From assembly GCA_049682815.1 (NCBI GenBank), contig JBAUII010000011.1:14881-78880 (forward strand): DNA of 64,000 bases, given 5' to 3'. This DNA is from Thermodesulfobacteriota bacterium. Its GTDB lineage: Bacteria > Desulfobacterota_D > UBA1144 > Nemesobacterales > CSP1-2. Below, in pieces: positions 6,231 through 46,578 of the stretch; position 1 is the first letter of the stretch, and the number at the start of each line of letters is the position of its first letter. A model generated the notes under the pieces. That model was not told where the DNA came from. It did no database searches and was given only the letters and a program-made list of their open reading frames with translations. A program made the position numbers and the translations under genes.

Positions 6231-6449
6231 TAAATATATTTTGGCTTGGGGAAATTACCATAATAGTCCGCGGCTAGCAAATTTTCATGCGCGCTAGTGA
6301 ATTTATATTGCCGGTGATAATGGTTATTTCTGACATCGCGTGGATACTTCTTAATCTTCAAATTATAATGCTTAAATAATCAGACGATTTTCGGCCGGAA
6401 GTATGCTTAGTCTAGATAGCATGTTGGGTTAAGAAGAACAAGAAACAAT

Positions 6450-7574
6450 ATGAAGGTTTTAATGATCAGTTATGAATTTCCTCCACTGGGAGGGGGTGGA
6501 GCCAAGGTGGTTCACGGATTAACGAATGAGTTGGTAAGGCTCGGACACGAGGTGGACATCGTTACAATGGGATTTAGAGGGCTCCCTAAACACGAAAAGA
6601 TGAATAGTGCTAATATCTATAGAGTTTCATGCCTTAGAGCTAATGAGTTAATTTGCTCAACTCATGAAATGGTCTCCTACACATTGTCTGCAATTCCGTT
6701 TGCTTTAAGATTGATAAAAAGCAAACATTATGATATCAATCACACCCATTTTATCTTACCGGATGGTTTAGTATCATATTTGTTGAAGAAGATAACAAAA
6801 CTACCATACATTATCACGGCACATGGTTCTGATGTGCCCGGCTATAATCCTGATCGATTTAGAATCGAGCATAAGATTCTTTCACCACTCTGGAAAATGA
6901 TTGTTAACGATGCGGATCAACTTGTTTGCCTTAGCGAATACCTAAAATCGCTCGCGAGTAAGCGTTATTCTGGCGATAAAATTCTTGTGATTCCGAATGG
7001 AATCGATATAGATAGGTTTTCACCAATCAGAAAAAAACAGAAGAGGATCCTTATAGTAAGTAGGATGTTCGAAAGAAAGGGGATTCAGTACTTTCTAAAA
7101 GCTTTGGATGGATTAGAACTAGACCATGAAATAAACATAGTTGGTGACGGCCCCTACCTGCAAACTCTAAAACAGATGGTTGATTGCCACAGCAAAAAGA
7201 TTAAGTTTTGGGGGTGGCTAGAACATACATCGGGAGAATTAAGAGATTTATATGAGACTTCCAGCATTTTTGTGTTTCCATCGGAATCAGAGAATTTCCC
7301 AATAGTCCTCTTGGAGGCCATGTCAGCGGGTTTAGCAATCATTACAACGAAAGATACAGGGTGTGAAGAGGTGGTTGGAAATTGCGCAATTTTAGTCGAA
7401 CGGAAGAGTCCATTGTCTATCAAAAAAGGTTTGCAATCATTGTTAAACGATCCAGATAAATGTAGGAAAATAGGTCAGGATGCTAGAAAGAGGCTTGAGG
7501 ATAATTTCAGTTGGAATAAAATTGCAATAAAATATGTTGACCTGTATCAAGACTGTAAAGACGGTCAGTCTTGA
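6450..7574 (+). CDS. glycosyltransferase family 4 (GT4, GT-B fold)
   Basis: N-terminal YEFPPLGGGGAKVV and a C-terminal E-x7-E type motif region (FPSESENFPIVLLEAMSAG). Confidence 0.8.
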   Translation: MKVLMISYEFPPLGGGGAKVVHGLTNELVRLGHEVDIVTMGFRGLPKHEKMNSANIYRVSCLRANELICSTHEMVSYTLSAIPFALRLIKSKHYDINHTHFILPDGLVSYLLKKITKLPYIITAHGSDVPGYNPDRFRIEHKILSPLWKMIVNDADQLVCLSEYLKSLASKRYSGDKILVIPNGIDIDRFSPIRKKQKRILIVSRMFERKGIQYFLKALDGLELDHEINIVGDGPYLQTLKQMVDCHSKKIKFWGWLEHTSGELRDLYETSSIFVFPSESENFPIVLLEAMSAGLAIITTKDTGCEEVVGNCAILVERKSPLSIKKGLQSLLNDPDKCRKIGQDARKRLEDNFSWNKIAIKYVDLYQDCKDGQS

Positions 7575-7622: not shown

Positions 7623-8516
7623 ATGGGAAAAGATTTAAAGGTTGATTTTATAGGCATAGGATCCACTAAATCGGGCACGACATGGTTGTTTTATATGCTA
7701 GGTCAGCACCCGCAAATTTGTTTATCAGAGCCGAAGGAGATTGGATATTTTAACTTTGCATATTACGTAAAAGATTTTGCACGGCCCAATGAGTTAAAAT
7801 TGATCAATAGGAATCATACAAAACCATTTTCATGGTACAAACGACACTTTAGGCATTGTTCGGAACATACGATTAAAGGCGAATTTACTCCTTATTATCT
7901 TTATGATGAACAGGCACCTTCTTTAATAAAGCAATATTTCCCGGAGGTAAAACTAATAGTGTGTCTGAGGAACCCAATCGATAGAGCGTACTCTCTTTAC
8001 TGGGAATGGAGAAGTTACAGGAAAAGGGAAAATAGGGCATTTGAGGAAACAATAAAAGAAGACCGAAGGTATATTGAGCATGGTTTTTACTATAAATATT
8101 TGACTCATTACATTCGATGCTTCAAATTAGATCAGATAATGATAGTTCTATTCGATAATATTATAAGAAATCCTGAACAAGAAATAATAAACGTTTTCAG
8201 ATTTCTAGAAATTGATACAGATGTTAAACTAGATGTTGGAAAAATACCCAAAAATAAAGCAAAAAGAAGCGGATTTGTGTCAGTAGAGCCTGTCCTAAGA
8301 CACTTTTCAAATCTCTTGAGAGACCTGGATCAGTTTCGCCTTTTGCGATTGATTAGGTGGATTGGAATTAAAGAATTAATTATTAAACTAAGCACCACTT
8401 CTTTCAAATATCCGGATATGAATCCGGAAACAAGACAATTCCTCAGAAGCGTCTTCAAAGAGGATATATCAAAATTAGAAAAGCTATTCAAACTTGATCT
8501 GTCACATTGGACTTGA
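7623..8516 (+). CDS. sulfotransferase family protein (PAPS-dependent)
   Basis: The 5'-phosphosulfate binding motif GSTKSGTTW sits near the N-terminus, and RNPIDRAYS resembles the 3'-PB motif region. Confidence 0.75.
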   Translation: MGKDLKVDFIGIGSTKSGTTWLFYMLGQHPQICLSEPKEIGYFNFAYYVKDFARPNELKLINRNHTKPFSWYKRHFRHCSEHTIKGEFTPYYLYDEQAPSLIKQYFPEVKLIVCLRNPIDRAYSLYWEWRSYRKRENRAFEETIKEDRRYIEHGFYYKYLTHYIRCFKLDQIMIVLFDNIIRNPEQEIINVFRFLEIDTDVKLDVGKIPKNKAKRSGFVSVEPVLRHFSNLLRDLDQFRLLRLIRWIGIKELIIKLSTTSFKYPDMNPETRQFLRSVFKEDISKLEKLFKLDLSHWT

Positions 8517-8809: not shown

Positions 8810-9979
8810 CTAGCGCTTTGGGTCTTTGATTGTGTTATAAATCTCTATCAAGGAGATATTTTGCTTTTTCGCAATTTTTTTACAATCTTCGTATTCTGGC
8901 ATCTTATTAATTATTTTCGTATCCAATTTGGCAATTTTTACCCTTATTTTCCCGTATTGGGTATTGACCTCTTTTATTTCTCTTTTCAAAGTTTTTCTCT
9001 CTTCGTTTCGAATCCTGACCCCGATGCTTGTGGTTTCCTCAAAGATGATTTTGACTAATTCATCTTTCTCGTTTGGCTTAGATAACACGGTTAATTTTAC
9101 GGCGGGCCGGTTTTTCTTCATCAGAATATTTGTTAAATAAACATCCAATGCGCCATTTTGAATAAGCTTTTCCATTACATAGTCGTAGAGCTGGGGATTC
9201 ATGTCGTCGATATTGGTTTCGATGATACATACGGTTTCTTGTTCGGAATCAAAAGGCTCTCTTAATTTGCCAATAAAGACGCGAAGAACATTTGGCTGAT
9301 CAATGTCTTTTGTGCCGGCCCCATAACCGATCTTTTCCACTTCCATAAGAGGCAAATTGCAAAATTTTTCGGCGATAGTACTTATGATGGCAGCTCCAGT
9401 GGGTGTCACGAGCTCCGTGTTTGAATTTGATGTTGCATAAACAGGAATATTCGTGAGTATCTCGGCGGTGGCCGGAGCGGGTACCGGAAATTTACCGTGA
9501 GAAAATTTTACGAATCCAGAGCCAACATTTAACTTTGAGCAATATACCTTTTCGATCCCTAGGTTCTTTAGACCAACGAGTGAACAAACAACATCCACGA
9601 TGGTGTCTATGGCTCCTATTTCATGAAAATGGACTTTTTCTATAGGCTGGTCATGTATTTTCGCCTCCGCCTCAGCAATTCTCTGGAATATTTTCTTAGC
9701 CTGAATTTTAATTTCTTCATCCAATTTTGATCTTTCAATAATATTGTTTATTTCCTTTAGATGCCTATGTTTTACTTTTTCTGTGCTATTTACATTAAAC
9801 TTTGTTGCTGAAATGCCATTCTTTACTACCCTTTTGGCATTGATCTTGAAGCCTTTTAGCTTAAGTTTCTTTAGTTCTATTTTTAAGTTGTTTATATTCA
9901 GTCCAGAGGAAATTAATGAACCTATTATCATATCGCCGCTGATTCCTGAGAAACAATCGAAATATGCAATCTTAGACAT
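8810..9979 (-). CDS. larC: nickel insertion protein LarC (NPN cofactor biosynthesis, CTP-dependent nickel insertase)
   Basis: The N-terminus YFDCFSGISGDMIIGSL is the LarC/DUF111 signature. 389 aa, adjacent to larB and larE. Confidence 0.8.
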   Translation of the reverse strand: MSKIAYFDCFSGISGDMIIGSLISSGLNINNLKIELKKLKLKGFKINAKRVVKNGISATKFNVNSTEKVKHRHLKEINNIIERSKLDEEIKIQAKKIFQRIAEAEAKIHDQPIEKVHFHEIGAIDTIVDVVCSLVGLKNLGIEKVYCSKLNVGSGFVKFSHGKFPVPAPATAEILTNIPVYATSNSNTELVTPTGAAIISTIAEKFCNLPLMEVEKIGYGAGTKDIDQPNVLRVFIGKLREPFDSEQETVCIIETNIDDMNPQLYDYVMEKLIQNGALDVYLTNILMKKNRPAVKLTVLSKPNEKDELVKIIFEETTSIGVRIRNEERKTLKREIKEVNTQYGKIRVKIAKLDTKIINKMPEYEDCKKIAKKQNISLIEIYNTIKDPKR

Positions 9980-10015
9980 ATGGGTTCCTTGACTCTCCAG
10001 TGGTTGAGTATTCTT

Positions 10016-10765
10016 TTACTTATTTATTAACGATGCAAAGTAACCTGCACCAAAACCATTATCTATGTTTACAACCGCGATACCAGGAGAACACGAATTG
10101 AGCATAGTTAGCAATGGACCGATGCCTTTAAAGCTGGCTCCGTAACCTACTGAAGTAGGAACAGCAATGACAGGTTTCTTAACAAGCCCCGAAACTACTG
10201 AGGGCAAAACTCCATCCATACCGGCAACTATGATCAAGACATTGGAACCATCTATCCTCTTTTTGTTATTTAAAAGTCGGTGAATCCCAGCTACTCCCAC
10301 ATCAAACAATCTTTCAACCTTATTATTCATTATTTCAGCTGTGACAGCCGCTTCCTCCGCCACGGGCAAGTCAGAAGTTCCTGCGCTAACTACTAGTATG
10401 ATTTTGTTTTTTACTTTGAAATTTCGTCGTCTTATATGTCTGAATATGATGGTTCTCGATGTTTCATTAAACTCCGCGCTTTTTACATGTTTTTTGACTA
10501 ATTCGTACATTTCCTTTGAAGCGCGGGTAGCTAATACATCATTATACTTGGACATTTTCTTAAAAATCTTGGCCACTTGCTCTGGACTCTTATTTTGACA
10601 AAAAATCACCTCTGGAAATCCCTTTCTCAGTGTCCTATGATGATCAATATTAGCAAAACCCAGATTCTCATACGGAAGGTGCTCTAATTTTTCTAGACCT
10701 TTCTCTAAAGGTATTTTGTGATTTCGGACGTCCAACAAAATTTCTTTGATTTTTTCTTTGTACAT
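10016..10765 (-). CDS. larB: nickel pincer cofactor biosynthesis protein LarB (NaAD carboxylase/hydrolase, PurE-like)
   Basis: PurE-like C-terminal half with ILVVSAGTSDLPVAEEAA and the GMDGVLPSVV motifs. 249 aa. Confidence 0.8.
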   Translation of the reverse strand: MYKEKIKEILLDVRNHKIPLEKGLEKLEHLPYENLGFANIDHHRTLRKGFPEVIFCQNKSPEQVAKIFKKMSKYNDVLATRASKEMYELVKKHVKSAEFNETSRTIIFRHIRRRNFKVKNKIILVVSAGTSDLPVAEEAAVTAEIMNNKVERLFDVGVAGIHRLLNNKKRIDGSNVLIIVAGMDGVLPSVVSGLVKKPVIAVPTSVGYGASFKGIGPLLTMLNSCSPGIAVVNIDNGFGAGYFASLINK

Positions 10766-10874
10766 TAAATTTTATCAAAATCTACTGGATCTACTGAAAG
10801 TTTATCATAACTTTATTGTTTCGGCTGGCAAACGAAACTTCAAAAACGCTGGTTCACACAATGTTCAGTTAAGC

Positions 10875-11702
10875 TCAAAAGCCTTTTGTTTTAAATTTCG
10901 AATTTAGATTAAGAAAGACATTTAATGAACCACTTTTCAATTCCTTGATTTCAATTTCCTCGAAGCCAATCTCAATAAATTTATTATCAATTGAAAGATA
11001 ATTTGTTTGTATACTCTTGAGACTGATTTTGTTGACTTCTATTCTGGCTTTTTTCCCGAAATGTCTGACACGCAATTCCTTGATACCCAAATCCTTCAGA
11101 TAATTTTCTGCTTTTTCTATCATATCGAGTTTCCGCAGCGTGATCTTCTGTCCGTACGGAACTCTGGAAGAAAGGCACGGGCTTGCAGGTTTATCCCAAA
11201 TCTCCAGATTAAGCCTTTTGGCTAGAGCTCTTATATCACCTTTGTTTAAGCGGGCGTCTTTTAAAGGACTTACAATATGATACTCTTGAGCGGCTTGTAA
11301 ACCCGGTCTATAATCCTGCAAGTCATCTAGGTTAGTCCCATTGGCAATGAATTGGATCTTTTTGCTCATAGCAACTTCCAACAATTTAGAGTACAGTTCC
11401 GACTTGCAAAAATAACAACGGTTAAATGGGTTTATCATGTAATTCCCATTTTTGGTTTCGTCTGTGTGGATGATTAGGTGTCTCGCCCCTATCTTTTCCG
11501 CAATTCTTTTGGCTTGTTCTAACTCTCTTCTCGGAATCGATGGAGAATCAGCAGTCACAGCTAGCACCCGATCCTCCAGTGAATCATTGGCTACTTTCAA
11601 TAACAAAGCACTGTCGATGCCGCCCGAAAAGGCGACTATCAACGTTCTGAACTTTCTTATGATCCTTGTTAGATTCTTGTACTTGTATTCTAATTCTTCC
11701 AT
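10875..11702 (-). CDS. larE: ATP-dependent sacrificial sulfur transferase LarE (PP-loop ATP pyrophosphatase)
   Basis: PP-loop SGGIDS near the N-terminus; conserved Cys-containing motif PCLSSR (the sacrificial Cys in LarE). 275 aa. Confidence 0.8.
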   Translation of the reverse strand: MEELEYKYKNLTRIIRKFRTLIVAFSGGIDSALLLKVANDSLEDRVLAVTADSPSIPRRELEQAKRIAEKIGARHLIIHTDETKNGNYMINPFNRCYFCKSELYSKLLEVAMSKKIQFIANGTNLDDLQDYRPGLQAAQEYHIVSPLKDARLNKGDIRALAKRLNLEIWDKPASPCLSSRVPYGQKITLRKLDMIEKAENYLKDLGIKELRVRHFGKKARIEVNKISLKSIQTNYLSIDNKFIEIGFEEIEIKELKSGSLNVFLNLNSKFKTKGF

Positions 11703-12149
11703 GGTGAGTAAACGACCGTTTTAAATATATTCGGTGCTCATGCGATCGCAACCCTTGTTTATAATTATAATCCCTACATATGAACCAGGTAAGTGAAATT
11801 AGATTAAGCATTAAAAGGATTATATAATTTCTCGGCAGTTTATTCGAATGATAAAACAAATTCTTGTCCTACAATCCTTATAGATTACAGTGCTCGTTGA
11901 TTTCTAACTTATAATTTGAGTAATATCTGGATTGATCTGAAGTGAGGGCACGCATGTGATCCGGAAACGCAAGGTCCAGTCCATCAGATTTTATTATCTT
12001 GATCACCAGAGATGTAATGTAAAATGTTTGTAAATAGAAAGATTTGTTGGGTACGGAAGAATTAGAGAAAATGGAGTCTGGCCCTTGGGTATATTATTAC
12101 GGTTAGAAAAACTTGAATGATACACAGGTGCGTAAGGAGAAAATAGGGT

Positions 12150-13436
12150 TTGACAGAAGTCGAGCTTTTATCTGCTGCGTGGTACGGTGATAATCCAATT
12201 ACAATAACCTTTCCGTCTTCGTGGGAGGTCTTTGTAGTTGGTACGATAAATATCCCGCCTTTGACTGATGATGAAGTCAGGGAAAGGTTTTATAACCCTA
12301 TAGGAGTTCCTAGATTATCGGTTTTAGCCTCAAAAAGAAATCGTGTTGCTATAGTCATAGATGATATTACGAGACCTACCCCTACTGCCAGACTTATCCC
12401 ATTCATTTTAGAAGAATTAAAACACGCTGGGATTAATGATGAGTCGATCATTATAGTTGTAGCCTCAGGAACACATACGCGTGCTTCAGAAGATGATATT
12501 ATAAAAAAAGTAGGTGAGAGTATTGTAAATAAATTCAGGGTAAGTGCGCATGACTGCAGGCGAGATTTGGTTTATTTGGGGAAGTCCTTGAGGGGAACAC
12601 CACTGTTTATAAATCAAGCAATAATGGAATGTGATCTAAAGATAGGGGTTGGATGTATATATCCCCACGGAAGTGCTGGATTTGCAGGAGGATCAAAAAT
12701 ACTTATGCCCGGCGTATGTGGAATCGAAACTGTGCGTTACATGCATAGCTATCTCAGCACGGCCAGGAAGAGAGGTGGATCACTTGAAAATGATTTAAGG
12801 CTGGATATTGAAGAAGTCGCCGGAAAAGTTGGGCTCGATTTCATTATTAACGTGGTTTTGGGACAAAAACGTGAGATCGCAGGTTTGTTCACGGGGGATA
12901 AAATCTTAGCACACCGGGAAGGAGTGAAGTTTGCTACCGAACTTTATAGTGTGAGTCTAGAGCAAAACGCGGATATTGTGGTTTCAAATATGTATCCTTT
13001 TGACACTAGCTTACAGTATGTTCCAAGCAGAGGATTCTGGCCACTATTGGAGAGTGGGACTAAAATTTCAAAAGTTGCTATTGCAGCTTGTCCGATGGGG
13101 CTTGGATATCACGGCCTAGCTCCATTGTCGAGGTCTATTAAGTCGCGATTTTTAAATCGACTGAAGTATTTTGATCTAAAAGAATTTAAATTTTTATTTT
13201 CTCGTCTTATGACGTTAAAAAAAGTCCTCATGCGACAGAGTATGGAGTTTATGATGCTATCTCAGGGAATAACGAAAGAAGAATTGAAAACGATCTTTCC
13301 TAAAGCCAAACTATTTAGCACCTGGGGTGAGCTTTTAAACGAGCTTGAAATTCGCCATAAGGATTTACCTGTTAAAGTAGCTGTATACCCGTTTTCGCCG
13401 TTACAGATTCCAATGTGGAAAAGTTTTAATTTTTGA
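12150..13436 (+). CDS. LarA-family (DUF2088) nickel-pincer-nucleotide-dependent racemase/epimerase homolog; substrate unknown
   Basis: TTG start with RBS aaggaga. The motifs IDDITRPTPT, ASGTHTRAS and YPHGSAGFAGGSKIL...RYMH fit the LarA Asp/Arg, His, NPN-tethering Lys and second His positions. Divergent from larCBE. Confidence 0.7.
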   Translation: MTEVELLSAAWYGDNPITITFPSSWEVFVVGTINIPPLTDDEVRERFYNPIGVPRLSVLASKRNRVAIVIDDITRPTPTARLIPFILEELKHAGINDESIIIVVASGTHTRASEDDIIKKVGESIVNKFRVSAHDCRRDLVYLGKSLRGTPLFINQAIMECDLKIGVGCIYPHGSAGFAGGSKILMPGVCGIETVRYMHSYLSTARKRGGSLENDLRLDIEEVAGKVGLDFIINVVLGQKREIAGLFTGDKILAHREGVKFATELYSVSLEQNADIVVSNMYPFDTSLQYVPSRGFWPLLESGTKISKVAIAACPMGLGYHGLAPLSRSIKSRFLNRLKYFDLKEFKFLFSRLMTLKKVLMRQSMEFMMLSQGITKEELKTIFPKAKLFSTWGELLNELEIRHKDLPVKVAVYPFSPLQIPMWKSFNF

Positions 13437-13505
13437 TGGATGACAGGCGAGACTTGATCGAGAGATGGTCAATAGCGTTATCGTAAATCGATATTAAGTT
13501 ATAAA

Positions 13506-14147
13506 ATGATTCCAGAATATGATGTCAGGGGTGATGAATTAAATTATAAATGGCACGTTGATGCACGTAATCCGCTCAGGCGGCTGCAGAGAAAACTATT
13601 GTTGGACAATTGTAACGGAAAGAGAATATTAGATATTGGGGGTGGAACTGGCAGAACTGGCAACGCGCTCATTCAGAATGGATATGAAGTTACAGTTCTG
13701 GATAAGAATGAAGATATTATGAGATTCGGACAGGAGATACACTCCCCTTTAGTTTTCGTCAAGGGTGATGCTTACCGCTTACCATTTAAAAGTGAGGTAT
13801 TTGATGAGGTGATTTTAGAAGAGATCATTGAACATTTCGAAGACCAGGGAAATGCTATCGAGGAGATACACAGGGTTCTAAGGCCGGGAGGTCGAGTTAT
13901 CTTGTCGACGCCAAATAAGTATTTGTTTAGAATTTATATATTTGTCTTGAGGCTTGCCACATTAAGGGTCAATGAGATTATGAAGCATGTGAAGAGTCAT
14001 ACACATGAGTTAAATCCAGACCAACTTGAACGATTGTTTATTAAATTTAAAGAAAGAACGGTTTTTGGTATTAACCCTTTTTGCCAATTTCTGGCAAAAA
14101 AATTTCCTAAGCTCGGAGTAGGTTTATTAGGGATTTTCAAAAAGTGA
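13506..14147 (+). CDS. class I SAM-dependent methyltransferase
   Basis: Motif I ILDIGGGTGRTG, an acidic residue after beta-2 (VLDKNE), and a motif post-I region. Confidence 0.75.
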   Translation: MIPEYDVRGDELNYKWHVDARNPLRRLQRKLLLDNCNGKRILDIGGGTGRTGNALIQNGYEVTVLDKNEDIMRFGQEIHSPLVFVKGDAYRLPFKSEVFDEVILEEIIEHFEDQGNAIEEIHRVLRPGGRVILSTPNKYLFRIYIFVLRLATLRVNEIMKHVKSHTHELNPDQLERLFIKFKERTVFGINPFCQFLAKKFPKLGVGLLGIFKK

Positions 14148-14177
14148 AAATGAAGTCATAGAAATTATATAAAATAT

Positions 14178-15794
14178 GTGATGAAGATGATCGAGCAATC
14201 CGGAGACATGAAGAGCGATCCCATTATTTTCATAGGCTTAGATAGTGCAGACCCAGATCTAATTCTGAAATGGTCTAGCGAGGGACACCTGCCGGCCATA
14301 TCTTCACTTCTAAAGCGCGGGTGTTGGGGAAAGTTAAATTCGACGGCGGACATATCAAGTGGCTCATTATGGCCCACTTTTTTTACTGGGACTTCGCCTG
14401 CAAAGCACGGTTGCTATTTTGGTCATATGCAACTAAAAAGTGGTACGTATAGAATCTTTAAAAGAGATGCTGATCAGATTAAGAGAAACCCTTTCTGGCT
14501 CTGGTTAAGTCAGGCCGGAAAAAGGGTTGCCATTTGTGATATACCCCAAACTTATCCGATCGAAGGACTTAATGGGATACAGATAACTGGGTGGGGAGTT
14601 GAATCGCCACACTGGAAGTTATCATCCTGGCCACCTGACCTTATTGGAGATGTGATATCACGTTTTGGAACTCATCCTCTCTGGAGATGGTATCAGACTA
14701 AACCTGAGAAAATCAGTGAATACGCGGACTTGTACGAAAAATTAATGTTAGGGATAGAGAGAAAAGGTTTAATCACATCTTATCTGTTGGAACGGGGACC
14801 CTGGGACTTTTTTTTAATGATGTACTCGGAACCACATTGGGCCGGACATTTGCTTTGGCATCTATTTGACGTTAAGCATTCGGCCTATGATGAAGAGATG
14901 GCTAAGGGTTTTAAGGAAGTAATTCGCAATATTTACGCATCAATTGATTCCAACATTTCGAGACTAATCGATGCATTTCCTGATGCAACCTTCTTAATTT
15001 TTTCTCCTGCGGGTATTGAAAATAATTATAGCGGCATACATCTATTGCCCGAAGTCCTAAAAAGACTCGGCATAATGGGGAAAAACTCAAAGGATGAGCG
15101 CCTGTTTGACCCGATTTCATTTGCGCTCGAGAACATACGTCTATTGATGCCTCACAAGAGGTGGGGACCGTATGCGCTCAAAAAATTAGAAAACGTTATT
15201 CCCACTGAGGTAATCGAGGTTGCCAAGCGGATCGTCCCTGAAAAATTGTGGGCAAACATGGCGCGTCGCTTATTAACACTTGGTAACGAATGGCGATGGA
15301 GCAGGGCGTTTTGCCTGCCGAATGACTTCTCCGGGGCAATCAGAATAAATCTGAAAGGTCGAGAGCCAAGTGGTCTGGTAGAACCGGGAGAAGAATACGA
15401 TAGATTATGCGATGAACTCATAAGGGAGCTTAATTATTTAGTCAATCCCGATACGGGCAAGAATGCGGTCAGTGAAGTCCTGAGAGTAGACAAGCTATTT
15501 CAGGGAGAAAATCTATGCGACCTTCCGGACCTTCTTGTAGTATGGAAAAGGGATGCACCAATAAAAGCCCTGTTTTCGCCTCGTATTGGAACAGTTACAG
15601 GTGACATTCCCGATAAGCGAATGGGGGCTCACAAAGCTGAGGGCATACTCATAGCTGCGGGGAGGAAAATCAATTCCTCGAAAACCTTTGAAGGAGGCCA
15701 TATTATGGATATAGCTCCAACAGTTCTCCATCTAACGGGCTGCTCGGTACCGCAAGATATGGATGGCAAGGTTCTAACGGAAATAATTTATTAG
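14178..15794 (+). CDS. alkaline-phosphatase-superfamily protein (PF01663 type I phosphodiesterase / nucleotide pyrophosphatase-like)
   Basis: N-terminal IIFIGLDSADPDL...SGSLWPTFFTGTSPAKHG metal-binding Asp/Ser region typical of PF01663 proteins found in polysaccharide loci. Confidence 0.65.
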   Translation: MMKMIEQSGDMKSDPIIFIGLDSADPDLILKWSSEGHLPAISSLLKRGCWGKLNSTADISSGSLWPTFFTGTSPAKHGCYFGHMQLKSGTYRIFKRDADQIKRNPFWLWLSQAGKRVAICDIPQTYPIEGLNGIQITGWGVESPHWKLSSWPPDLIGDVISRFGTHPLWRWYQTKPEKISEYADLYEKLMLGIERKGLITSYLLERGPWDFFLMMYSEPHWAGHLLWHLFDVKHSAYDEEMAKGFKEVIRNIYASIDSNISRLIDAFPDATFLIFSPAGIENNYSGIHLLPEVLKRLGIMGKNSKDERLFDPISFALENIRLLMPHKRWGPYALKKLENVIPTEVIEVAKRIVPEKLWANMARRLLTLGNEWRWSRAFCLPNDFSGAIRINLKGREPSGLVEPGEEYDRLCDELIRELNYLVNPDTGKNAVSEVLRVDKLFQGENLCDLPDLLVVWKRDAPIKALFSPRIGTVTGDIPDKRMGAHKAEGILIAAGRKINSSKTFEGGHIMDIAPTVLHLTGCSVPQDMDGKVLTEIIY

Positions 15795-16011
15795 GATTTT
15801 AACGTTACCAGCTCTATAAGTTACTCCTGATGTCCACGTACCCATATTCTCTTTTTTGCCATGCCCAATTCTATTTGGAAACTATCAATGAGTAAATAGC
15901 GAGTTCTGTGTTCGTTAATAAAGAAATCGGCGAATCTTATGTTATTTTGTCTTTATGACCTTTTTGCACCAGTTATGATAATCGACGATTAATTAATAGC
16001 GTGGTATTAGC

Positions 16012-17196
16012 TTGAAGATTTTTTATATATATCTGACTGACGTACGTAATACTTGGGCTAATGTAGTTCAAACCTTACAGATGTGCGAGGCTTTATCAAA
16101 ATTACACGAGGTTAATTTTTTTCACCCGTTTCTCTCCCAGAGGACTTTAAATGAGAGGCTGAGTTTTTTTTATATAGAGAAAAGATTTTGTATTACCAGG
16201 GTTGTGGCATTTGGCCCACTTGAGCACAAGTACTTGGATTTTGCCAACAGGGTTATTTTCTTTTTACAAATACTCTTTTATTTATATTTTTTTAAATACG
16301 ACTTGGTTTATACACGCGACTTTTCATTTCTAGTATTTCTCTCCTGGCTCCCTAGATTCCTGAGACCAAAGAAGAAAATAATTTATGAGCCTCATAAGAT
16401 TTATTATTATTCCTCGAAAAAAGTTAATGATCTCAGACTCGAGATTGAGTGTGTAAAACTACCCGACAAGTTTATAGCAATATCACATGGAGTAAAGCAG
16501 GATTTGGTTCAACTCGGGGCCGAAGTGAAGAAGATTGAAGTTGTTCCAAACGCTGTGAAGGTCGATAAGTTTTCTCTCGAATTTGATATGGACGCCTTTA
16601 GAAAGGAAAATAATATCTCGAATGACGATGTGGCTATAACTTATACTGGTTCGTGGGAGACGTGGAAAGGCGTTGATGTATTAATCAAAGCGTTTGCAAG
16701 AGTTTTGAAAAAAACAGGAAATTGTAAATTGATCTTAGTCGGGGGAAGTAAGAAAGATCTTATCAATACGAGAGAATTGATAAAAAGTTTAGAAATATGC
16801 GCAGAAAGAATTCTCTTGATTGGTTTTGTTTCTCAATCTGAAGTTGCTAAATATCTTAAGATTTCTGATATTGGGGTAATTCCTACTGTCGGAAAATCTG
16901 CAGGGCTTCGTTACACCTCACCGCTAAAGTTATTTGAGTATATGGCCGCAGGACTGCCAATTGTTGCTTCGGACTTGCCTTCGACGCGTGAGTTACTTAA
17001 AGAAGATGAAGCGGTATTTTTTGAGCCCGAAAGCGAGTATGATTTAGCTGACAAGCTAACTGATTTAATCAACGATAAAGTGAAAAGAGAGAAGATGAGG
17101 CTTTTGATGAGGCAAAGAGTAAAAGACTTTACCTACGAAGAAAGATGTCGAAAAGTAACAGAAGTAATAAATAGTGCTATGCGAATTCATGCTTAG
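16012..17196 (+). CDS. glycosyltransferase family 4 (GT4)
   Basis: C-terminal GT-B domain with the GxxxxGVD...KLILVGG and LFEYMAAGLPIVASD motifs. The start (TTG in the track) is uncertain. Confidence 0.75.
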   Translation: MKIFYIYLTDVRNTWANVVQTLQMCEALSKLHEVNFFHPFLSQRTLNERLSFFYIEKRFCITRVVAFGPLEHKYLDFANRVIFFLQILFYLYFFKYDLVYTRDFSFLVFLSWLPRFLRPKKKIIYEPHKIYYYSSKKVNDLRLEIECVKLPDKFIAISHGVKQDLVQLGAEVKKIEVVPNAVKVDKFSLEFDMDAFRKENNISNDDVAITYTGSWETWKGVDVLIKAFARVLKKTGNCKLILVGGSKKDLINTRELIKSLEICAERILLIGFVSQSEVAKYLKISDIGVIPTVGKSAGLRYTSPLKLFEYMAAGLPIVASDLPSTRELLKEDEAVFFEPESEYDLADKLTDLINDKVKREKMRLLMRQRVKDFTYEERCRKVTEVINSAMRIHA

Positions 17197-17202
17197 AATT
17201 GT

Positions 17203-19212
17203 ATGTCGATTCTTAAAAACGATTGGATTATAGGGAACAGGAAGCCAATCATCGTCTCGATGTTGGTCCTTTTTATTGTGTTTTCGGGATCTTTACTCCT
17301 CTTATTCTTTGGATCTCGGCTCATCGAGTGGACATCCAAGGGCGAATCAATTGAATTTATCAACAGATTAATAGTTGAGGGTAAGAAATATGATTTACCC
17401 TATCTTCCGGTCGAGTCAGCTTTAATTAGAATTGTCATAATTATTGACACATTATCGCTTGTATTGGTCGCAAGTCTTCTCAACCCAAGGATTCGTCGGA
17501 TTATCAAGAGTTTTTTCACCGAGAAGACACATCCGGTGAACCTTGCAGTTTTTCGTATAGTATTGTTTCTCACTGTAATCAATACGGTTGATGTGTCAGA
17601 TGTAATCTGGTTTAGTGAGTTTCCTAAAGAATTGTTATTTGCCCCGACCGGGCTCGAATGGTTATTTAATTACATACCCGTCAACGAAACTTGGGCCAGG
17701 GTGTCGAGTGTGTTGTTTCTTTTTTTCTGTTTTACTGGAATGATAGGTCTCTTTACGCGCACTTCAGCGCTGTTGGCCGTGATCTTTGGCTTCTACGTAC
17801 TTGGCATCCCTCAATTCTTTGGTAAGGTAAGGCATTACCACCATCTCATATGGTTCCTTGCAATCCTCGCGGCTAGCCGGTCCGGAGATGCGCTTTCAGT
17901 TGATGCAATTTTTGCTGCGAGAAAGAGAGCGGATCGGGGGATAACTGATCCTCCTGGTTCTTCTCAAGCTTATGCTTTGCCCCTTCGGTTCGTATGGCTT
18001 TTAATGGGTGTTATGTATTTTTTCCCCGGGTTTTGGAAATTTGTATGGGCGGGTCCCGATTGGGCTTTTAGTGATAACTTAAAATTTAGACTTTATAAAA
18101 CATGGTTTGAATTCGGCGATTGGACACCTTTTTTCAGAATAGATCAGTATCCTTTTTTGTACAAAATAGCTGCACTGACAACCATGATTTTCGAATTATC
18201 CTTTATCTTTATAATTTTCTTTCCGGGAATGCGTTTATTTGCTGCGTTGGGGGGACTTCTATTCCATAACTTAACTAATTTGTTTATGCGGATACCATTC
18301 TGGTGGCTTCAACCATGCTATGTATCTTTCTTTGATTGGGATTCGATTTTTCACCGAATTGGACGCTGGATTTACAAGGATGAAATGTACCTATTTTATG
18401 ACGCAACGAGTAAGAGCTGTCGCAGAAAGCTGGCGTATCTAAGGGTTTTTGATGTATTCGGTCGTGTGGTGTATGTGAATGTCCTCGACGAAGGAGAGGC
18501 AAAAACTTACGACCGGGATTTATTGGATGTTTCCGTAATTAAGACAGACATGTGCGCGTCTATCCGCTCCAGGAGATTGCAAGGGGTTCAGGTTTATAAG
18601 GAAATTGGAAAGCGCATTCCAGTTTTCTGGCCTGTATTGCCATTCTTATACATTCTGCTACTGACAAAAATTGAAAGCTGGATAATTCGTCATCGAGTAG
18701 AGTCACAGAAATCAACCCTGGCAAAAGCATCATCTTTACACTCAGAGGGGTACAAATCTACCCGTCCAGGTTTGACTGCGGTCATAACCGTTGGAGTGTT
18801 CTTAATTTTTGTGAATGTCCTATGTGGTCTAGCCCATATAGTGTCGGGTTGGCCTTTCGCTTGCTATCCAACCTTCGAGCGTGTCATATCTCATAAATCA
18901 AAAATAGAATCTCTCGCGATTTCTTTGACGAGCTCTACTGGTGAATCCATCTCACTCGATGGATACTTATTGAATAGAGAACTTTATTGGTCGAGGAGTC
19001 TGGGTTTAATCCAGCACATTCTTGAGACGGATGATGAGGAACTAATGCACGTCCGTCTAAGGGGACTTTGGCGGATCTGGTCGGAGAAAGATCCTAGACT
19101 AATGACGGCGCATTCCGTTCGATTTTACAAGGTTGTGCTTTTTCCGATTCCACCCGAAGATTTGTCGATAAATCCTGTCAAACGAGAGTTTCTTTATGAG
19201 TTACAATTGTAG
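17203..19212 (+). CDS. HTTM-domain (vitamin-K-dependent gamma-carboxylase-like) polytopic membrane protein with a C-terminal DCC/DUF393-like region
   Basis: 669 aa with multiple TM helices. The VNLAVFRIVLFLTVI...ALLAVIFGFYVLGIP region resembles HTTM. The central LFYDATSKSCRRKLAYLRVFD resembles the DUF393/DCC YDGxCxxC segment but has only one Cys. Confidence 0.55.
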   Translation: MSILKNDWIIGNRKPIIVSMLVLFIVFSGSLLLLFFGSRLIEWTSKGESIEFINRLIVEGKKYDLPYLPVESALIRIVIIIDTLSLVLVASLLNPRIRRIIKSFFTEKTHPVNLAVFRIVLFLTVINTVDVSDVIWFSEFPKELLFAPTGLEWLFNYIPVNETWARVSSVLFLFFCFTGMIGLFTRTSALLAVIFGFYVLGIPQFFGKVRHYHHLIWFLAILAASRSGDALSVDAIFAARKRADRGITDPPGSSQAYALPLRFVWLLMGVMYFFPGFWKFVWAGPDWAFSDNLKFRLYKTWFEFGDWTPFFRIDQYPFLYKIAALTTMIFELSFIFIIFFPGMRLFAALGGLLFHNLTNLFMRIPFWWLQPCYVSFFDWDSIFHRIGRWIYKDEMYLFYDATSKSCRRKLAYLRVFDVFGRVVYVNVLDEGEAKTYDRDLLDVSVIKTDMCASIRSRRLQGVQVYKEIGKRIPVFWPVLPFLYILLLTKIESWIIRHRVESQKSTLAKASSLHSEGYKSTRPGLTAVITVGVFLIFVNVLCGLAHIVSGWPFACYPTFERVISHKSKIESLAISLTSSTGESISLDGYLLNRELYWSRSLGLIQHILETDDEELMHVRLRGLWRIWSEKDPRLMTAHSVRFYKVVLFPIPPEDLSINPVKREFLYELQL

Positions 19213-19353: not shown

Positions 19354-20643
19354 TTAAAAATCACGCTCGACATTTGATATGATGGATCTGAGTTTTCCCG
19401 ATGGGTCTAGCGGAATCTCTTTGACTCGTTCAAAGGAAACATCAACACCTTTACCAAACAGGACTCTAAAATCCTTTTTAAATCGATCGACGGTCTTTTT
19501 AAAATATTCTTCCTCGCATAACAGAAGAACTCGGATATGTTCCCAACCTTCTTGGATTATCCTGTACTGGTCTATCTCGCTGTAGTTCTTCATGAAATTA
19601 AAGAAGAATTGAAAATTTAGCAGGCTGCCGTCACGCAGCGAAATTATATCATCCAAACGTCCCTCTATACTCTCAATTAAGGGAAACCGCCTCCCGCATC
19701 GGCACATGTCTTTAGAGAGGACACAAACGTCATCTAATTTATATCTGATGAATGGCATTGTATAAGAATAGAGATTTGTGCAAATGGTTACTCCTTTGTC
19801 TCCGGGAGAAACTGGTTTTCCGCCTCTGTCAATAAATTCCGTTACAACACAGTCGGCATTAATGTGTAATCCACGATGTGCCCTGCATTCCCATGCAAGC
19901 GTCCCCATCTCATTACTTGCATAGACATTGGTTGGATTGACTCCAAAAGCGTCCTTAATGATTTTACGCGTCGCATCTTCTAAAACTTCACCCGTCGAAA
20001 AAATCGATTTAAGTTTTTCGATTTGCATTCTCTCCTTTAGGATTCTCTTCGATAATAGCTCAAGAGCGGATTTTGTGCTGTAAATCACATCAGGTCTCGC
20101 TTTCTTTAATAAATCAATTTGTTCTTCTAATGGTAGAAATACTGAGATATAATCGAAGTCTAAAATTCCAATTTTTCGAAATTTTGATTTCTTCTCAAAA
20201 CCCATCGGTCTCCAGATCGAAATAACTTTATCCGTTATGCTGTATCCATTTTCAAAATATGCCCTTAGCCATCGTAGTTTCCTGTGTTGCTTTTCTTTAC
20301 GGTCTAAATAGACCGTTAGTGGCTTACCTGTCGAACCACTAGTTGTTTCTTTAATGCACCTTTCTTTGTCAACCCCTCTAGCTAAGAGCTCATCAATTGG
20401 TGTTTTCTTTATAGTCTCTTTAGTTGTAATTGGTATTTTAGATAAGTCTTCAATACCTCTTATATGCTCGGGCTTTATCTCAACAGAGTCCAGAAGATTA
20501 CGATAATATATTACATTTTCATAGGCATGCCTGATTAGTATTTTTAGTTTTTGCTCTTGTATTCGCTTCAGCTCTTTTTCAGATAGCCAGACGTTTTTGC
20601 GTAATGTTCTTAATTCTAAGAGGTCCTTTATAGTAGTTATCAT
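19354..20643 (-). CDS. phenylacetate-CoA ligase family / coenzyme F390 synthetase-like adenylate-forming enzyme (CapK-like)
   Basis: AMP-binding motif TSGSTGKPL, with size and domain order as in PaaK/F390-synthetase-like proteins. Convergent with the glycan operon. Confidence 0.7.
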   Translation of the reverse strand: MITTIKDLLELRTLRKNVWLSEKELKRIQEQKLKILIRHAYENVIYYRNLLDSVEIKPEHIRGIEDLSKIPITTKETIKKTPIDELLARGVDKERCIKETTSGSTGKPLTVYLDRKEKQHRKLRWLRAYFENGYSITDKVISIWRPMGFEKKSKFRKIGILDFDYISVFLPLEEQIDLLKKARPDVIYSTKSALELLSKRILKERMQIEKLKSIFSTGEVLEDATRKIIKDAFGVNPTNVYASNEMGTLAWECRAHRGLHINADCVVTEFIDRGGKPVSPGDKGVTICTNLYSYTMPFIRYKLDDVCVLSKDMCRCGRRFPLIESIEGRLDDIISLRDGSLLNFQFFFNFMKNYSEIDQYRIIQEGWEHIRVLLLCEEEYFKKTVDRFKKDFRVLFGKGVDVSFERVKEIPLDPSGKLRSIISNVERDF

Positions 20644-20862: not shown

Positions 20863-21723
20863 ATGATCCAAGATCAAATGACAAACCATTCTGAATCGAT
20901 GGCGACATTTGTAGAGACTGCGGGTCATGAAGACGACAAAATCAATCTTGTCGAGGTATCGCTTCTTCTTGCCAAGTGTATCGAGTATCCAAACTTGGTT
21001 ATCGGCGAATATCTTAAGAGAATAGAAAAAATGGCAGCCGAAATTGAGTCTCAATTGGGCTGTGACACCAGGAATCCGAATTCGTTGATAGATTTAATCA
21101 ATAATTATTTGTTTGTCGAACAGGGATTCAATGGTAATGAGGACGACTATTATGACCCTAGAAATAGTTTCTTAAATGATGTTATGGATAGAAAAACAGG
21201 AATTCCGATTACACTTTCTACCCTATATATTGAGCTTGCAAGCAGGGTGGGGCTGGGATTAGACGGAGTAGGCTTCCCGGGACACTTTATTGTTAAGTAT
21301 TCGGGACCAGGCGATGAGATACTAATCGATCCCTTTAACAAGGGCAGAATACTATCGGATAAAAACTGCCAGGATATTCTCAATAGGATGTTTGGGAGTA
21401 GGGTCCAGTTTAGAAGAGAAATGATAGCTACTTCTACTAAGAAGCAAATACTTAGCAGAATGCTGAATAATTTGAAAGGAATATATGTCGATTCTAAAAA
21501 TAATCAAAAGGCTCTTTCAGTTGTTGAATTGATTCTTGAATTAAAACCTGAAAGTATTTCGGAACTAAGAGATAGAGGGCTACTTTACTATAAGCTGGAA
21601 TGCTTTTCCCAGGCACTTCATGACCTGGAAACATATCTTAATCTATCTCCTGATGCTCTGGATCGTGAGGTGATGACTAATATTGTTTCAAGGTTAAAGG
21701 ATCTTGTGAAATTGATTAACTAA
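20863..21723 (+). CDS. transglutaminase-like domain + TPR protein (SirB1/UPF0162 family)
   Basis: KTGIPITLSTLYIELASRVGL...GFPGHFIV is the transglutaminase-like core-2 fold motif. A helical TPR-like tail follows. Confidence 0.65.
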   Translation: MIQDQMTNHSESMATFVETAGHEDDKINLVEVSLLLAKCIEYPNLVIGEYLKRIEKMAAEIESQLGCDTRNPNSLIDLINNYLFVEQGFNGNEDDYYDPRNSFLNDVMDRKTGIPITLSTLYIELASRVGLGLDGVGFPGHFIVKYSGPGDEILIDPFNKGRILSDKNCQDILNRMFGSRVQFRREMIATSTKKQILSRMLNNLKGIYVDSKNNQKALSVVELILELKPESISELRDRGLLYYKLECFSQALHDLETYLNLSPDALDREVMTNIVSRLKDLVKLIN

Positions 21724-21887
21724 GTAGAATTTAAAATTAGTGTATACATGGTTAGTCGCATTTTCACAAGAATACAAGATTTTTCTGCCTACATCACAAA
21801 AGAAATAATAATTTTTATCTGTTTATTGGATTATCTCCCTTACTTCGGTAGAATTCCTACATTTTATATGCGTAGGGGATATCAGAT

Positions 21888-46544: not shown

Positions 46545-46578
46545 CACAATTGACTAATCATGCCCATTATAAATAGTC

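Follow-up and report, generated by a model that had tools for sequence, protein, structure and literature searches.

Gene Organization of the Locus

We analyzed a stretch of 64,000 nucleotides from a Thermodesulfobacteriota metagenome-assembled genome (MAG; contig JBAUII010000011.1, positions 14,881 to 78,880), referred to below as the window. It contains a gene for a homolog of the lactate racemase LarA, which adjoins the genes for synthesis of the nickel-pincer nucleotide (NPN) and stands among glycosyltransferase (GT) genes. The protein belongs to a clade of probable NPN isomerases serving a glycoconjugate pathway. The features of the locus are listed below with window coordinates, strand and profile matches (E-values or bit scores).

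6450..7574, + strand: upstream GT4 glycosyltransferase (Glycos_transf_1 7e-33, Glyco_transf_4 1e-28)
7623..8516, + strand: sulfotransferase of the 3'-phosphoadenosine 5'-phosphosulfate (PAPS) type (Sulfotransfer_1 9e-19)
8810..9979, - strand: larC, fused LarC1 and LarC2 (nickel insertion, CTP-dependent), 389 amino acids (aa) (PF01969 2e-153)
10016..10765, - strand: larB, nicotinic acid adenine dinucleotide (NaAD) carboxylase/hydrolase (NF033503 292 bits, cut-off 175)
10875..11702, - strand: larE, CXXC-C type (TIGR00268 308 bits, cut-off 150)
11703..12149: intergenic region between the divergently oriented larE and LarA-homolog genes, 447 bp, AT-rich
12150..13436, + strand: LarA-superfamily enzyme, 428 aa, TTG start, NCBI MGB7290847.1 (Lar_N 9e-56)
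13506..14147, + strand: class I S-adenosylmethionine (SAM) methyltransferase (Methyltransf_11 3e-19)
14178..15794, + strand: cytoplasmic enzyme of the alkaline phosphatase superfamily, similar to PhnA and to nucleotide pyrophosphatases/phosphodiesterases (NPP) (PF01663 3e-17)
16012..17196, + strand: GT4 glycosyltransferase (Glycos_transf_1 2e-26)
17203..19212, + strand: polytopic membrane protein, 669 aa, HTTM-like N-terminal part and DCC1-like domain (DCC1-like E = 0.004)
19354..20643, - strand: convergent PaaK/CapK-like adenylate-forming (F390-synthetase-like) ligase (PaaK, FlxY and F390-related NCBIfam matches, all under cut-off)

Our gene calls agree with an earlier note on this DNA, which had described the LarA homolog as followed by methyltransferase, PF01663, GT4 and HTTM/DCC genes, preceded by GT4 and sulfotransferase genes and faced by a convergent ligase gene. 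The contiguous and complete larC-larB-larE set described there was also recovered. All three proteins exceed their NCBIfam equivalog cut-offs, and the genes lie next to each other on one strand (8810–11702). LarC scored 230 bits with TIGR00299 (LarC1, cut-off 90) and 166 bits with NF052512 (LarC2, cut-off 50). The LarE translation carries an SGGIDS PP-loop together with the motifs CYFC and PASPC, which form the CXXC-C cysteine triad. LarE proteins with this pattern depend on a [4Fe-4S] cluster and are not sacrificial (PMC9283937); the motifs thus predict that the window LarE is a [4Fe-4S]-dependent sulfur insertase which does not sacrifice a cysteine.

The label HTTM/DCC for the membrane protein holds in part. 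The DCC1-like match is weak in the window protein, and HTTM (PF05090) was undetected there even at E ≤ 1. Full-length homologs with 41–79% identity carry PF04134, and some of them also PF05090, so that HTTM is supported through homologs only.

The same-strand gaps within 12150–19212 are short (69, 30, 217 and 6 bp) and a terminator scan revealed no terminator-like site between these genes, which makes their co-transcription plausible. Scans of the sequence gave 46 sigma-70 promoter-like sites compared to 40.7 in shuffled sequence, and 5 terminator-like sites compared to 11.1. Since these counts do not exceed those of shuffled sequence, we make no regulatory claim. The intergenic region 11703–12149 is mostly conserved in two relatives of 89% identity, loci L004 and L005 (mean column identity 94% over three rows, two of them identical). 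Rfam gave no match across the whole window, nor in a permissive scan of 11703–12149.

Cofactor Site, Fold, and Family Membership of the LarA Homolog

The window protein is identical to MGB7290847.1, whose public annotation reads "nickel-dependent lactate racemase". Its Lar_N domain (PF09861/DUF2088) spans residues 12–203 and scored 188.8 bits (Pfam gathering threshold 23.3; E = 9e-56). The protein contains the motifs DDITR (D72, R75), SGTH (H109), PH (H173) and GGSK (K183), followed by H199. The distance of 16 residues between K183 and H199 is the same as between K184 and H200 in L. plantarum LarA. In alignments to Mar2 (LarAH6) and to the LarA proteins of L. plantarum and Isosphaera pallida, the residues D72, R75, H109, H173, K183 and H199 align with LarA D72, R75, H108, H174, K184 and H200. 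All six are invariant in 30 members of the clade, which share 42–89% identity with the window protein. They include the counterparts of the NPN site, namely R75, K183 (the covalent tether K184 of LarA) and H199 (the nickel ligand H200 of LarA). Both catalytic histidines, H109 and H173, are kept in the clade, whereas neighboring clades have Q, N or R at the second position. The D-x-T-R, GTH, GGSK and distal histidine motifs listed in the earlier note are hence real and correctly placed. The cofactor of the 12150–13436 product would be made by the adjacent larB, larE and larC.

An AlphaFold2 (AF2) model of the window protein (pLDDT 90.8, pTM 0.90) exhibits the two-domain LarA fold. A Foldseek search with this model retrieved LarA structures with TM scores of 0.78–0.82 (8EZF 0.80–0.82), and Mar2 gave the best E-value (6e-34). 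The protein was also compared with the NCBIfam models of the NPN enzyme families:

LarAH6 malate racemases (NF052593 and NF052595 cover LarAH6/LarAH5): 262 bits, cut-off 500
LarAH5 malate racemases: 218 bits, cut-off 462
LarA sensu stricto (NF033504): 215 bits, cut-off 460
LarAH10 hydrophobic 2-hydroxyacid racemases (NF052525): 203 bits over residues 12–288 only, cut-off 540
Hexonate epimerases and LarAH14/15/16 (NF052594, NF052592): 38 bits, cut-off 500, and 49 bits, cut-off 740

All 30 clade members likewise remain under all six cut-offs (best E-value 2e-81), and no model of NCBIfam release 20 claims the clade proteins. Judged by its residues and its predicted fold, the window protein is probably an active NPN enzyme outside every characterized family.

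The best match among characterized enzymes is Mar2 from Thermoanaerobacterium thermosaccharolyticum (PDB 6D6Z, 7S91; phmmer 7e-49, profile 3e-67, about 30% identity). Both proteins have the same two-domain fold and share the D-x-T-R, G-x-H, P-H, GG-x-K and distal histidine motifs. However, the window protein reaches only 262 of the 500 bits and possesses no counterpart to the C-terminal specificity region of Mar2, in which the H/Q-K signature of malate racemases is located. Moreover, the mar2 gene stands in a context of malate metabolism and not of glycosyltransferases. LarA itself (L. plantarum, 5HUQ; I. pallida, 9EIA) resembles the window protein in fold (TM 0.78–0.82), in the catalytic and cofactor residues and in the accompanying larBCE set. 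It differs by an identity of only 25–27%, a score of 215 versus 460 bits, and substrate ligands and a DQW(T/E/Q) helix that are replaced in the window protein.

Phylogenetic Placement

A neighbor-joining (NJ) tree was calculated from the region corresponding to window residues 40–322, using the LarA homologs of 62 loci and the aligned parts of three solved enzymes. All homologs with glycosyltransferase neighbors formed one clade in 89 of 100 NJ bootstraps, and the window protein lies within it. Mar2, L. plantarum LarA and I. pallida LarA cluster together elsewhere in the tree (95/100). Together with the score of 215 versus 460 bits, this places the window protein apart from bona fide lactate racemases, so that a refuting outcome named in the earlier note, a tight grouping with these enzymes, did not occur.

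The nearest outgroup is weakly supported (49/100) and consists of Actinomycetota proteins that have Q or N instead of the second catalytic histidine. A further outgroup carries R at this position, and an outgroup of Bathyarchaeia retains the canonical Q...K carboxylate ligands. Glycan context was not seen in the Actinomycetota, Arg-type and Bathyarchaeia outgroups, apart from the single loci L076 and L088.

In the Actinomycetota sister group (L060, L062, L065, L068–L073, L076, L083, L085) a methyltransferase of about 300 aa is encoded directly beside the LarA homolog in about half of the loci, and lar maturation genes are found nearby as well in L060, L065 and L083. A glycosyltransferase neighbor occurs in L076 only. 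A conserved LarA-methyltransferase module is not supported, as the Actinomycetota methyltransferases have only about 29% identity to the window methyltransferase over the SAM-binding core. The Arg-type proteins (L078, L081, L084, L086, L088–L091) combine Arg for the second catalytic histidine with a one-residue deletion after it. Glycan context is nearly absent from this group; only L088 has a GT4 and a sulfotransferase gene nearby.

Glycosyltransferase Context across Phyla

Loci with LarA homologs were collected by looking up identical proteins and by scanning 185,579 species genomes, where 437 genomes were found; 91 loci were obtained in this way, and L095 and L096 were obtained from two further look-ups. 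Open reading frames (ORFs) were called in the 91 loci and classified by profiles built from seed proteins, and neighbors were counted over six genes on each side of the LarA homolog. At least one GT was found within this distance in 49 of 52 clade loci and in 2 of 22 loci of more distant LarA homologs (Fisher p = 6e-13; 33 of 36 after dereplication of the clade loci). At least two GTs were present in 43/52 clade loci compared to 0/22. The GT genes account for 144 of 563 neighbors (25.6%) in the clade and for 2 of 217 (0.9%) around the more distant homologs. In the window, two GT4 genes lie within six genes of the LarA homolog. The neighborhood is thus kept in relatives, across phyla and in different gene orders.

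The clade gene occurs in at least six cluster layouts distributed over Nitrospira, Chloroflexota, Gemmatimonadota, Gammaproteobacteria, Bacteroidota and Thermodesulfobacteriota-like MAGs. They are composed as follows:

Type A (this window, L001–L005, L012, L013, L058): GT4, then either an LPG_synthase_TM flippase-like gene or a sulfotransferase gene with inverted larCBE, LarA homolog, methyltransferase, PF01663, GT4, HTTM/DCC
Type B (about 25 Nitrospira genomes including N. defluvii, and MAGs of Chitinophagales, Chloroflexota and Bacteroidetes): nucleotidyltransferase, CDP-alcohol phosphotransferase, HpnL-like flippase-like, PgfS/ArnC-like GT2, followed by GT4, GT4, Wzx-like, GT2, LarA homolog, PMT_2-like GT-C
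Type C (Chloroflexota): three DUF6798 genes, flippase-like, PMT_2, large membrane protein, LarA homolog, two GT4 genes, sulfotransferase, second flippase-like
Type D (Steroidobacteraceae, Woeseiaceae, Gemmatimonadota): flippase-like, LarA homolog, PaaK/CapK-like ligase adjoining or near, larB/E/C, GT4
L095: GT4 genes on both sides of the LarA homolog (overlap of 4 bp with one, gap of 1 bp to the next); GNAT, kinase and MBOAT genes nearby
L096 and several Desulfobacterales and Anaerolineae loci: other permutations of the clade cluster

The LarA homolog overlaps its neighbors in several genomes, by 4 bp with the GT2 gene in Nitrospira and by 14 bp with the flippase-like gene in L001. In Type A relatives of 65–71% identity, the upstream GT4 and flippase-like genes are co-directional with the LarA homolog and overlap it; in the relatives L001 and L013 the counterpart of the 6450–7574 GT4 runs in the same direction as these two genes. 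The sulfotransferase gene of the window (7623–8516) fills the slot of the LPG_synthase_TM flippase-like gene of these relatives. Since sulfotransferase and inverted larCBE together sit in the flippase-like slot, cofactor synthesis is physically inside the window cluster. The statement that the LarA homolog heads an operon is therefore true locally but reflects a local rearrangement. Genes larCBE beside the LarA homolog were also found in Type D loci of Gammaproteobacteria.

In all Type A loci, the LarA homolog is followed by a methyltransferase ortholog with 64–91% identity, and Type A relatives carry extra PF01663 copies, a GT2 and an aldo-keto reductase as well. The earlier note had suggested that the product is then methylated and sulfated. 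At most, this applies to the present lineage, because the methyltransferase is specific to Type A and the sulfotransferases are sporadic. L004, the relative with 89% identity, keeps an additional PF01663 gene and the aldo-keto reductase gene, which the window does not have. In the same locus (17291–18588, - strand) two separate pieces, one of 104 aa (CapK_C) and one of 266 aa, stand in place of an intact PaaK/CapK-like ligase, which may indicate a pseudogene or an assembly error.

The Type A loci bear the labels Spirochaetia, Ignavibacteriales, Dadabacteria and Thermodesulfobacteriota. A nuoABCD-enolase-GT4 synteny is common to L001–L003, L013 and L058; the window (4944–7574) shares the enolase-GT4 part, and L012 is too short. 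Because this synteny is shared despite different phylum labels, the Type A loci probably represent one lineage with inconsistent MAG labels. Consequently, the breadth across phyla rests on Types B–D and the other layouts. The enolase gene adjoining the cluster was rejected as a pathway member, as it looks like part of this housekeeping synteny instead.

A Rebuilt Substrate Region with a Basic Hairpin

In the structure of I. pallida LarA with D-lactate, the carboxylate is held by R73, Q295 and K298 and by the two histidines, and the 2-hydroxyl group by H107 and Y294. Throughout the clade, Y294-Q295 is replaced by Q-F/Y (Q-Y in the window protein). The position of K298 is occupied by R in most clade members including the window protein, by K in one sub-branch and by W in another. 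The F175/F176 loop of LarA reads G-S in the window protein and P-x in most of the clade. The α-helix with the DQW(T/E/Q) specificity motif (W358 helix) cannot be aligned in the window protein, and the profile alignment to Mar2 ends at residue 323, so that the region of the H/Q-K signature (W358/T359) stays unaligned.

In place of the specificity helix, the model shows a 41-residue helix-turn-helix hairpin (residues 326–366, pLDDT 75–82). In every clade member this hairpin carries a net charge between +5 and +13 (mean +8 to +9; +8 in the window protein), and the remaining protein is about neutral. The residues that are invariant and specific for the clade include W11, W297, G317-x-G319-x-H321 and W392. 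The clade signature consists of YPFD...R/K/W-G-x-W, G-x-G-x-H, W392 and the basic 41-aa hairpin, all of which are present in the window protein. When the C-terminal 148 residues alone were searched against 1.84 billion representative proteins, 89 matches at E ≤ 1e-3 and 40 at E ≤ 1e-10 were obtained. With only 89 relatives, the substrate domain defines a small and distinct family.

Neighbor Proteins and the Likely Pathway

Recurrent partners of the clade gene are GT4 pairs and the lipid-carrier triad of a flippase-like protein (MprF-type LPG_synthase_TM, or Wzx), a PgfS/ArnC-like polyprenyl-phosphate GT2 and a PMT_2-like GT-C. Partners of these kinds are usual where glycolipids are made or where sugars are transferred from lipid carriers on the outer face of the membrane. 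The flippase-like protein of Type A showed weak matches to a glucosaminyl-phosphatidylglycerol flippase model and to MprF. The top NCBIfam matches of the GT4 encoded at 16012–17196 are GT4s of the glycolipid and exopolysaccharide (EPS) type, all under cut-off. No gene for a sugar epimerase of the short-chain dehydrogenase/reductase (SDR) type was found inside any Pfam-annotated clade cluster, and no acid-activating enzyme is common to all clade layouts.

The PF01663 protein (14178–15794) has neither a signal peptide nor a hydrophobic N-terminus. PDB sequence searches with this protein and with the HTTM/DCC protein gave no match. For the PF01663 protein the fold was therefore assigned by an AF2 model (pLDDT 88.6) and Foldseek, which returned phosphonoacetate hydrolase and nucleotide pyrophosphatases/phosphodiesterases as best folds. 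A 47% identical homolog is fused to a GT2 in an 841-aa protein (L098, 234–3852).

A module without LarA homolog, consisting of GT4, LPG_synthase_TM, GT2, PF01663 and aldo-keto reductase genes, is present in Nitrospira sp. M1 (L097, 6763–12553). Because such a basal module exists, the LarA homolog, the methyltransferase, the second GT4 and the HTTM/DCC protein of Type A appear to be tailoring additions to a simpler glycolipid module.

The Type B cluster of Candidatus Nitrospira defluvii (FP929003; L035, 464–3749) opens with genes for a nucleotidyltransferase and a 514-aa CDP-alcohol phosphotransferase, followed by the HpnL-like flippase-like gene. Best matches were inositol-1-phosphate cytidylyltransferase/DIPP synthase and archaetidyl- and phosphatidyl-inositol-phosphate synthases. 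These similarities are hints that the Nitrospira cluster product may be an inositol-phosphate-containing glycolipid.

L092 (9001–11028) encodes a 48% identical homolog of the HTTM/DCC protein within a polysaccharide cluster of the ABC-transporter type (Wzm/Wzt-like); Wza/Wzc-like genes are present there, but a LarA homolog is not. A cyanobacterial homolog (L094) has no glycan context. The 669-aa membrane protein of the window shows no detectable relationship to its 657- and 673-aa counterparts in the Chloroflexota layout (BLASTP E > 0.7).

Other Genes of the Window

The remaining ORFs, scanned to about 55.6 kb, are ordinary housekeeping genes, among them those for sigma-54, isopropylmalate-isomerase-like subunits, enolase, an efflux pump, DprA, TopA, RecG, 2-oxoglutarate dehydrogenase and ABC transporters. 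The scan, which ended before the ORFs from 55999 onward, detected no gene for a lactate permease, lactate dehydrogenase or malic enzyme.

Immediately after the ligase gene, 20863–23687 encodes a protein with transglutaminase-like and tetratricopeptide repeat (TPR) parts and an FG-GAP repeat protein. A transglutaminase-like/TPR gene likewise comes next after the fragments of the ligase in L004, which may reflect synteny or membership in one surface-related region. Genes for a UDP-glucose/GDP-mannose dehydrogenase (31821–33212) and a 243-aa GT2 (38418–39149) stand 12–19 kb downstream among DNA-repair genes, and a link of the two to the LarA-homolog cluster is possible. At 43504–47919, four consecutive genes resemble those of gliding-motility-type GldA/F/G transporters; their products are an ABC ATPase, an ABC-2 permease, an ABC_transp_aux protein and a DUF4340 protein.

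Proposed Reaction and Its Alternatives

We regard the clade enzyme as an NPN isomerase that serves a glycoconjugate pathway, with a probability of about three in four. In contrast to characterized LarA homologs, the clade would be dedicated to this pathway, whose product would be a cell-envelope glycoconjugate, most likely a glycolipid. The earlier note had postulated an NPN-dependent epimerization step on a glycan, lipid-linked or sugar-acid precursor, and both the clade separation and the conserved GT context support this. The more complete statement, in which the enzyme epimerizes a phosphate-anchored sugar within the envelope glycoconjugate pathway, is our preferred but tentative choice, with somewhat less than even odds. 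The observations cover gene content, conserved residues, the predicted fold, the separation of the clade and its recurring context; loading with the cofactor, the reaction, the trapping of the product and the class of substrate are inferred from them.

The conserved catalytic machinery argues for proton-coupled hydride transfer of the LarA type with inversion at one carbinol. In this scheme, one catalytic histidine (H109 or H173) would deprotonate a secondary alcohol, and the carbinol hydrogen would move to the pincer as a hydride, leaving a bound keto intermediate. The hydride would then return on the opposite face and the second histidine would reprotonate, so that one stereocenter is inverted. 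As epimerization is reversible, the product would be trapped by a neighbor-encoded transferase, which could be the methyltransferase in the window and a GT-C, GT4, GT2 or ligase in other layouts. The substrate may be a sugar whose carbinol lies beside an anionic phosphate anchor and which is handled at the membrane surface. Candidates are a sugar-1-phosphate, a nucleoside diphosphate (NDP)-sugar or a polyprenyl-phosphate sugar, which we prefer over a free small 2-hydroxy acid. The coupling to the lipid-carrier triad, the lack of a shared acid-activating enzyme, the altered carboxylate ligands and the basic hairpin all favor such a substrate, and DprE1/DprE2 (see below) provide a precedent for the mechanism.

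Several points weigh against this proposal. Every characterized LarA homolog acts on a 2-hydroxy acid (PMC7583248, PMC11770544), and no NPN enzyme with a carboxylate-free substrate is known. The cluster of the window itself has no GT2, flippase-like or GT-C gene, yet it is accompanied by a PaaK-like ligase gene. Finally, a basic hairpin of 42 aa (+6 to +14) is also present in the Actinomycetota sister group, which lacks GT neighbors; the hairpin is thus not specific to the glycan context.

The strongest competitor is a classical 2-hydroxy-acid racemase or epimerase which supplies one enantiomer (of lactate, glycerate, malate or dihydroxybutyrate) for a glycoconjugate. We consider it quite possible, although we would not expect it. 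The acid could serve as a GT4 aglycone acceptor, as BshA uses L-malate, or become an acyl substituent via the PaaK/CapK-like ligase. Such a role would be in line with the substrates of all known LarA homologs, with the retention of R75 and both catalytic histidines and with the cationic R/K that most clade members have at the K298 position. On the other hand, of the three non-catalytic ligands seen in I. pallida LarA with D-lactate, two (Y294 and Q295) are exchanged in all clade members, and the specificity helix is replaced as well. The ligase is convergent in the window and adjoins or lies near the LarA homolog in Type D. Its PDB matches include phenylacetate-CoA ligase (6e-23) and 2-hydroxyisobutyryl-CoA synthetase (2e-10), so that its family does include an enzyme for a 2-hydroxy acid. 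However, it is missing from Types B and C and from the Type A relatives of 65–71% identity, it consists of two ORFs in L004, and it is exactly in the ligase-adjacent Type D proteins that the third ligand position is Trp. GT4s occur in nearly all layouts and the window GT4 weakly matches BshA and MshA, but these matches are far under cut-off.

Within the phosphate-anchored reading, the clade could be the first NPN enzyme for a substrate other than a carboxylic acid, a one-protein glycosyl-phosphate 2-epimerase at the cytoplasmic membrane face. We offer this as a doubtful proposal. Here the anomeric phosphate would replace the carboxylate, and the basic hairpin would bind the phosphate or the membrane. 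A comparison without homology, and thus an analogy only, may be drawn to DprE1/DprE2 of mycobacteria. These proteins act as decaprenyl-phosphoribose 2'-epimerase via a keto intermediate, with an FAD oxidase and an NADH reductase, and the product is passed on to a GT-C. They too invert a carbinol beside a phosphate-anchored anomeric carbon, as would the clade enzyme according to the preferred reading, and GT-C enzymes are recurrent neighbors here. In contrast to the clade, two enzymes are involved and the proteins are unrelated. Sugar epimerases of the SDR type (GalE-like) act on NDP-sugars by transient oxidation with a tightly bound hydride carrier, NAD+, and are encoded inside glycan clusters. 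They have another fold, and their absence from the Pfam-annotated clade clusters is compatible with the LarA homolog filling that role, though it is no proof of this.

Two other groups of LarA homologs have been connected to sugars. The GntE enzymes (LarAH19/20), D-gluconate 2-epimerases, use NPN to invert C2 of a sugar-derived molecule, which indicates that the NPN family can handle polyhydroxylated substrates. In contrast to the situation proposed here, they convert free aldonic acids in catabolic contexts. The window protein is also distant from them, with 38 bits to the hexonate-epimerase model and a comparison with PDB 4NAR that gave E = 2e-4 and 16% identity. The single-histidine LarA homologs (groups 14–16; PDB 9Q3J, 9Q2U/9Q3K) are likewise divergent with non-canonical active sites. 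A link to carbohydrate metabolism was proposed for them by the authors of a 2025 preprint, who modeled a phosphorylated sugar-like ligand. Unlike the window protein, which keeps both histidines, they do not have one of the catalytic histidines; they are proteins of about 500 aa that form octamers and have a glycolytic or catabolic context. Identity is 17–18%, and the window protein scored 49 versus 740 bits.

It is improbable that the protein binds NPN but performs no simple inversion, acting either in other hydride chemistry on a glycan intermediate, such as a net oxidation to a keto-sugar for reduction, amination or methylation by another enzyme, or as a non-catalytic subunit. Non-inversion hydride chemistry was raised for divergent LarA homologs by Desguin et al. 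(2020), and an aldo-keto reductase gene ends the cluster in Type A relatives and in the LarA-free module of Nitrospira sp. M1. However, NPN is covalently tethered with no known route for re-oxidation, and therefore a net redox reaction would be single-turnover. Furthermore, the clade invariably has both histidines, which mark acid/base catalysis on two faces, whereas the neighboring one-histidine clades have no GT context.

An ordinary lactate or malate racemase with fortuitous GT neighbors is very improbable: the public "lactate racemase" records and the LarAH6 malate racemases as top curated family speak for it, but the scores of all 30 clade members at about half of every family cut-off, the small C-terminal family of 89 proteins, the separate clade in the tree, the GT context in at least six unrelated gene orders and the missing lactate and malate genes among the scanned window ORFs speak against it.

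Relation to Published Work and Significance

A GT, polysaccharide or glycolipid context of this kind is mentioned neither in the two systematic surveys of the family, Desguin 2020 (PMC7583248, including Table S1) and Urdiain-Arraiza 2024 (PMC11770544), nor in a methods paper from mBio (2024) and the preprint of 2025 on single-histidine homologs. Full-text literature searches for LarA, DUF2088 or lactate racemase combined with glycosyltransferase, and for Nitrospira combined with lactate racemase, gave nothing relevant, most subscription journals being outside their scope. We rejected group 8 of Table S1 (PMC7583248) as representing the same clusters; COG1215 GT2 proteins occur in 60% of its contexts, but RsuA, RpiR and glutamate dehydrogenase are the other neighbors. 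The suggestion that the Lar system has an undescribed role here thus holds within the searchable literature. The superfamily and the cofactor are known; as far as can be told, no earlier work describes this clade, the rebuilt domain for its substrate or its biosynthetic context in the envelope.

Few organometallic cofactors exist in biology, and the nickel-pincer nucleotide is one of them. The enzymes known to use it to date are all racemases and epimerases that act on small 2-hydroxy acids, and most of them belong to catabolic or central metabolism. Defined targets for the field are the N. defluvii protein D8PBA2 (CBK40511.1) and MGB7290847.1, and expression systems that load NPN exist. The widespread automatic annotation "nickel-dependent lactate racemase" would be corrected for these proteins. 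The clade would extend NPN chemistry to the biosynthesis of envelope glycoconjugates in organisms that include Nitrospira, which are key nitrifiers, and nickel supply would be tied to a cell-surface trait. If the glycosyl-phosphate 2-epimerase reading is true, the enzyme would be a functional counterpart of DprE1/DprE2, and part of the envelope of Nitrospira and of other carriers would be nickel-dependent.

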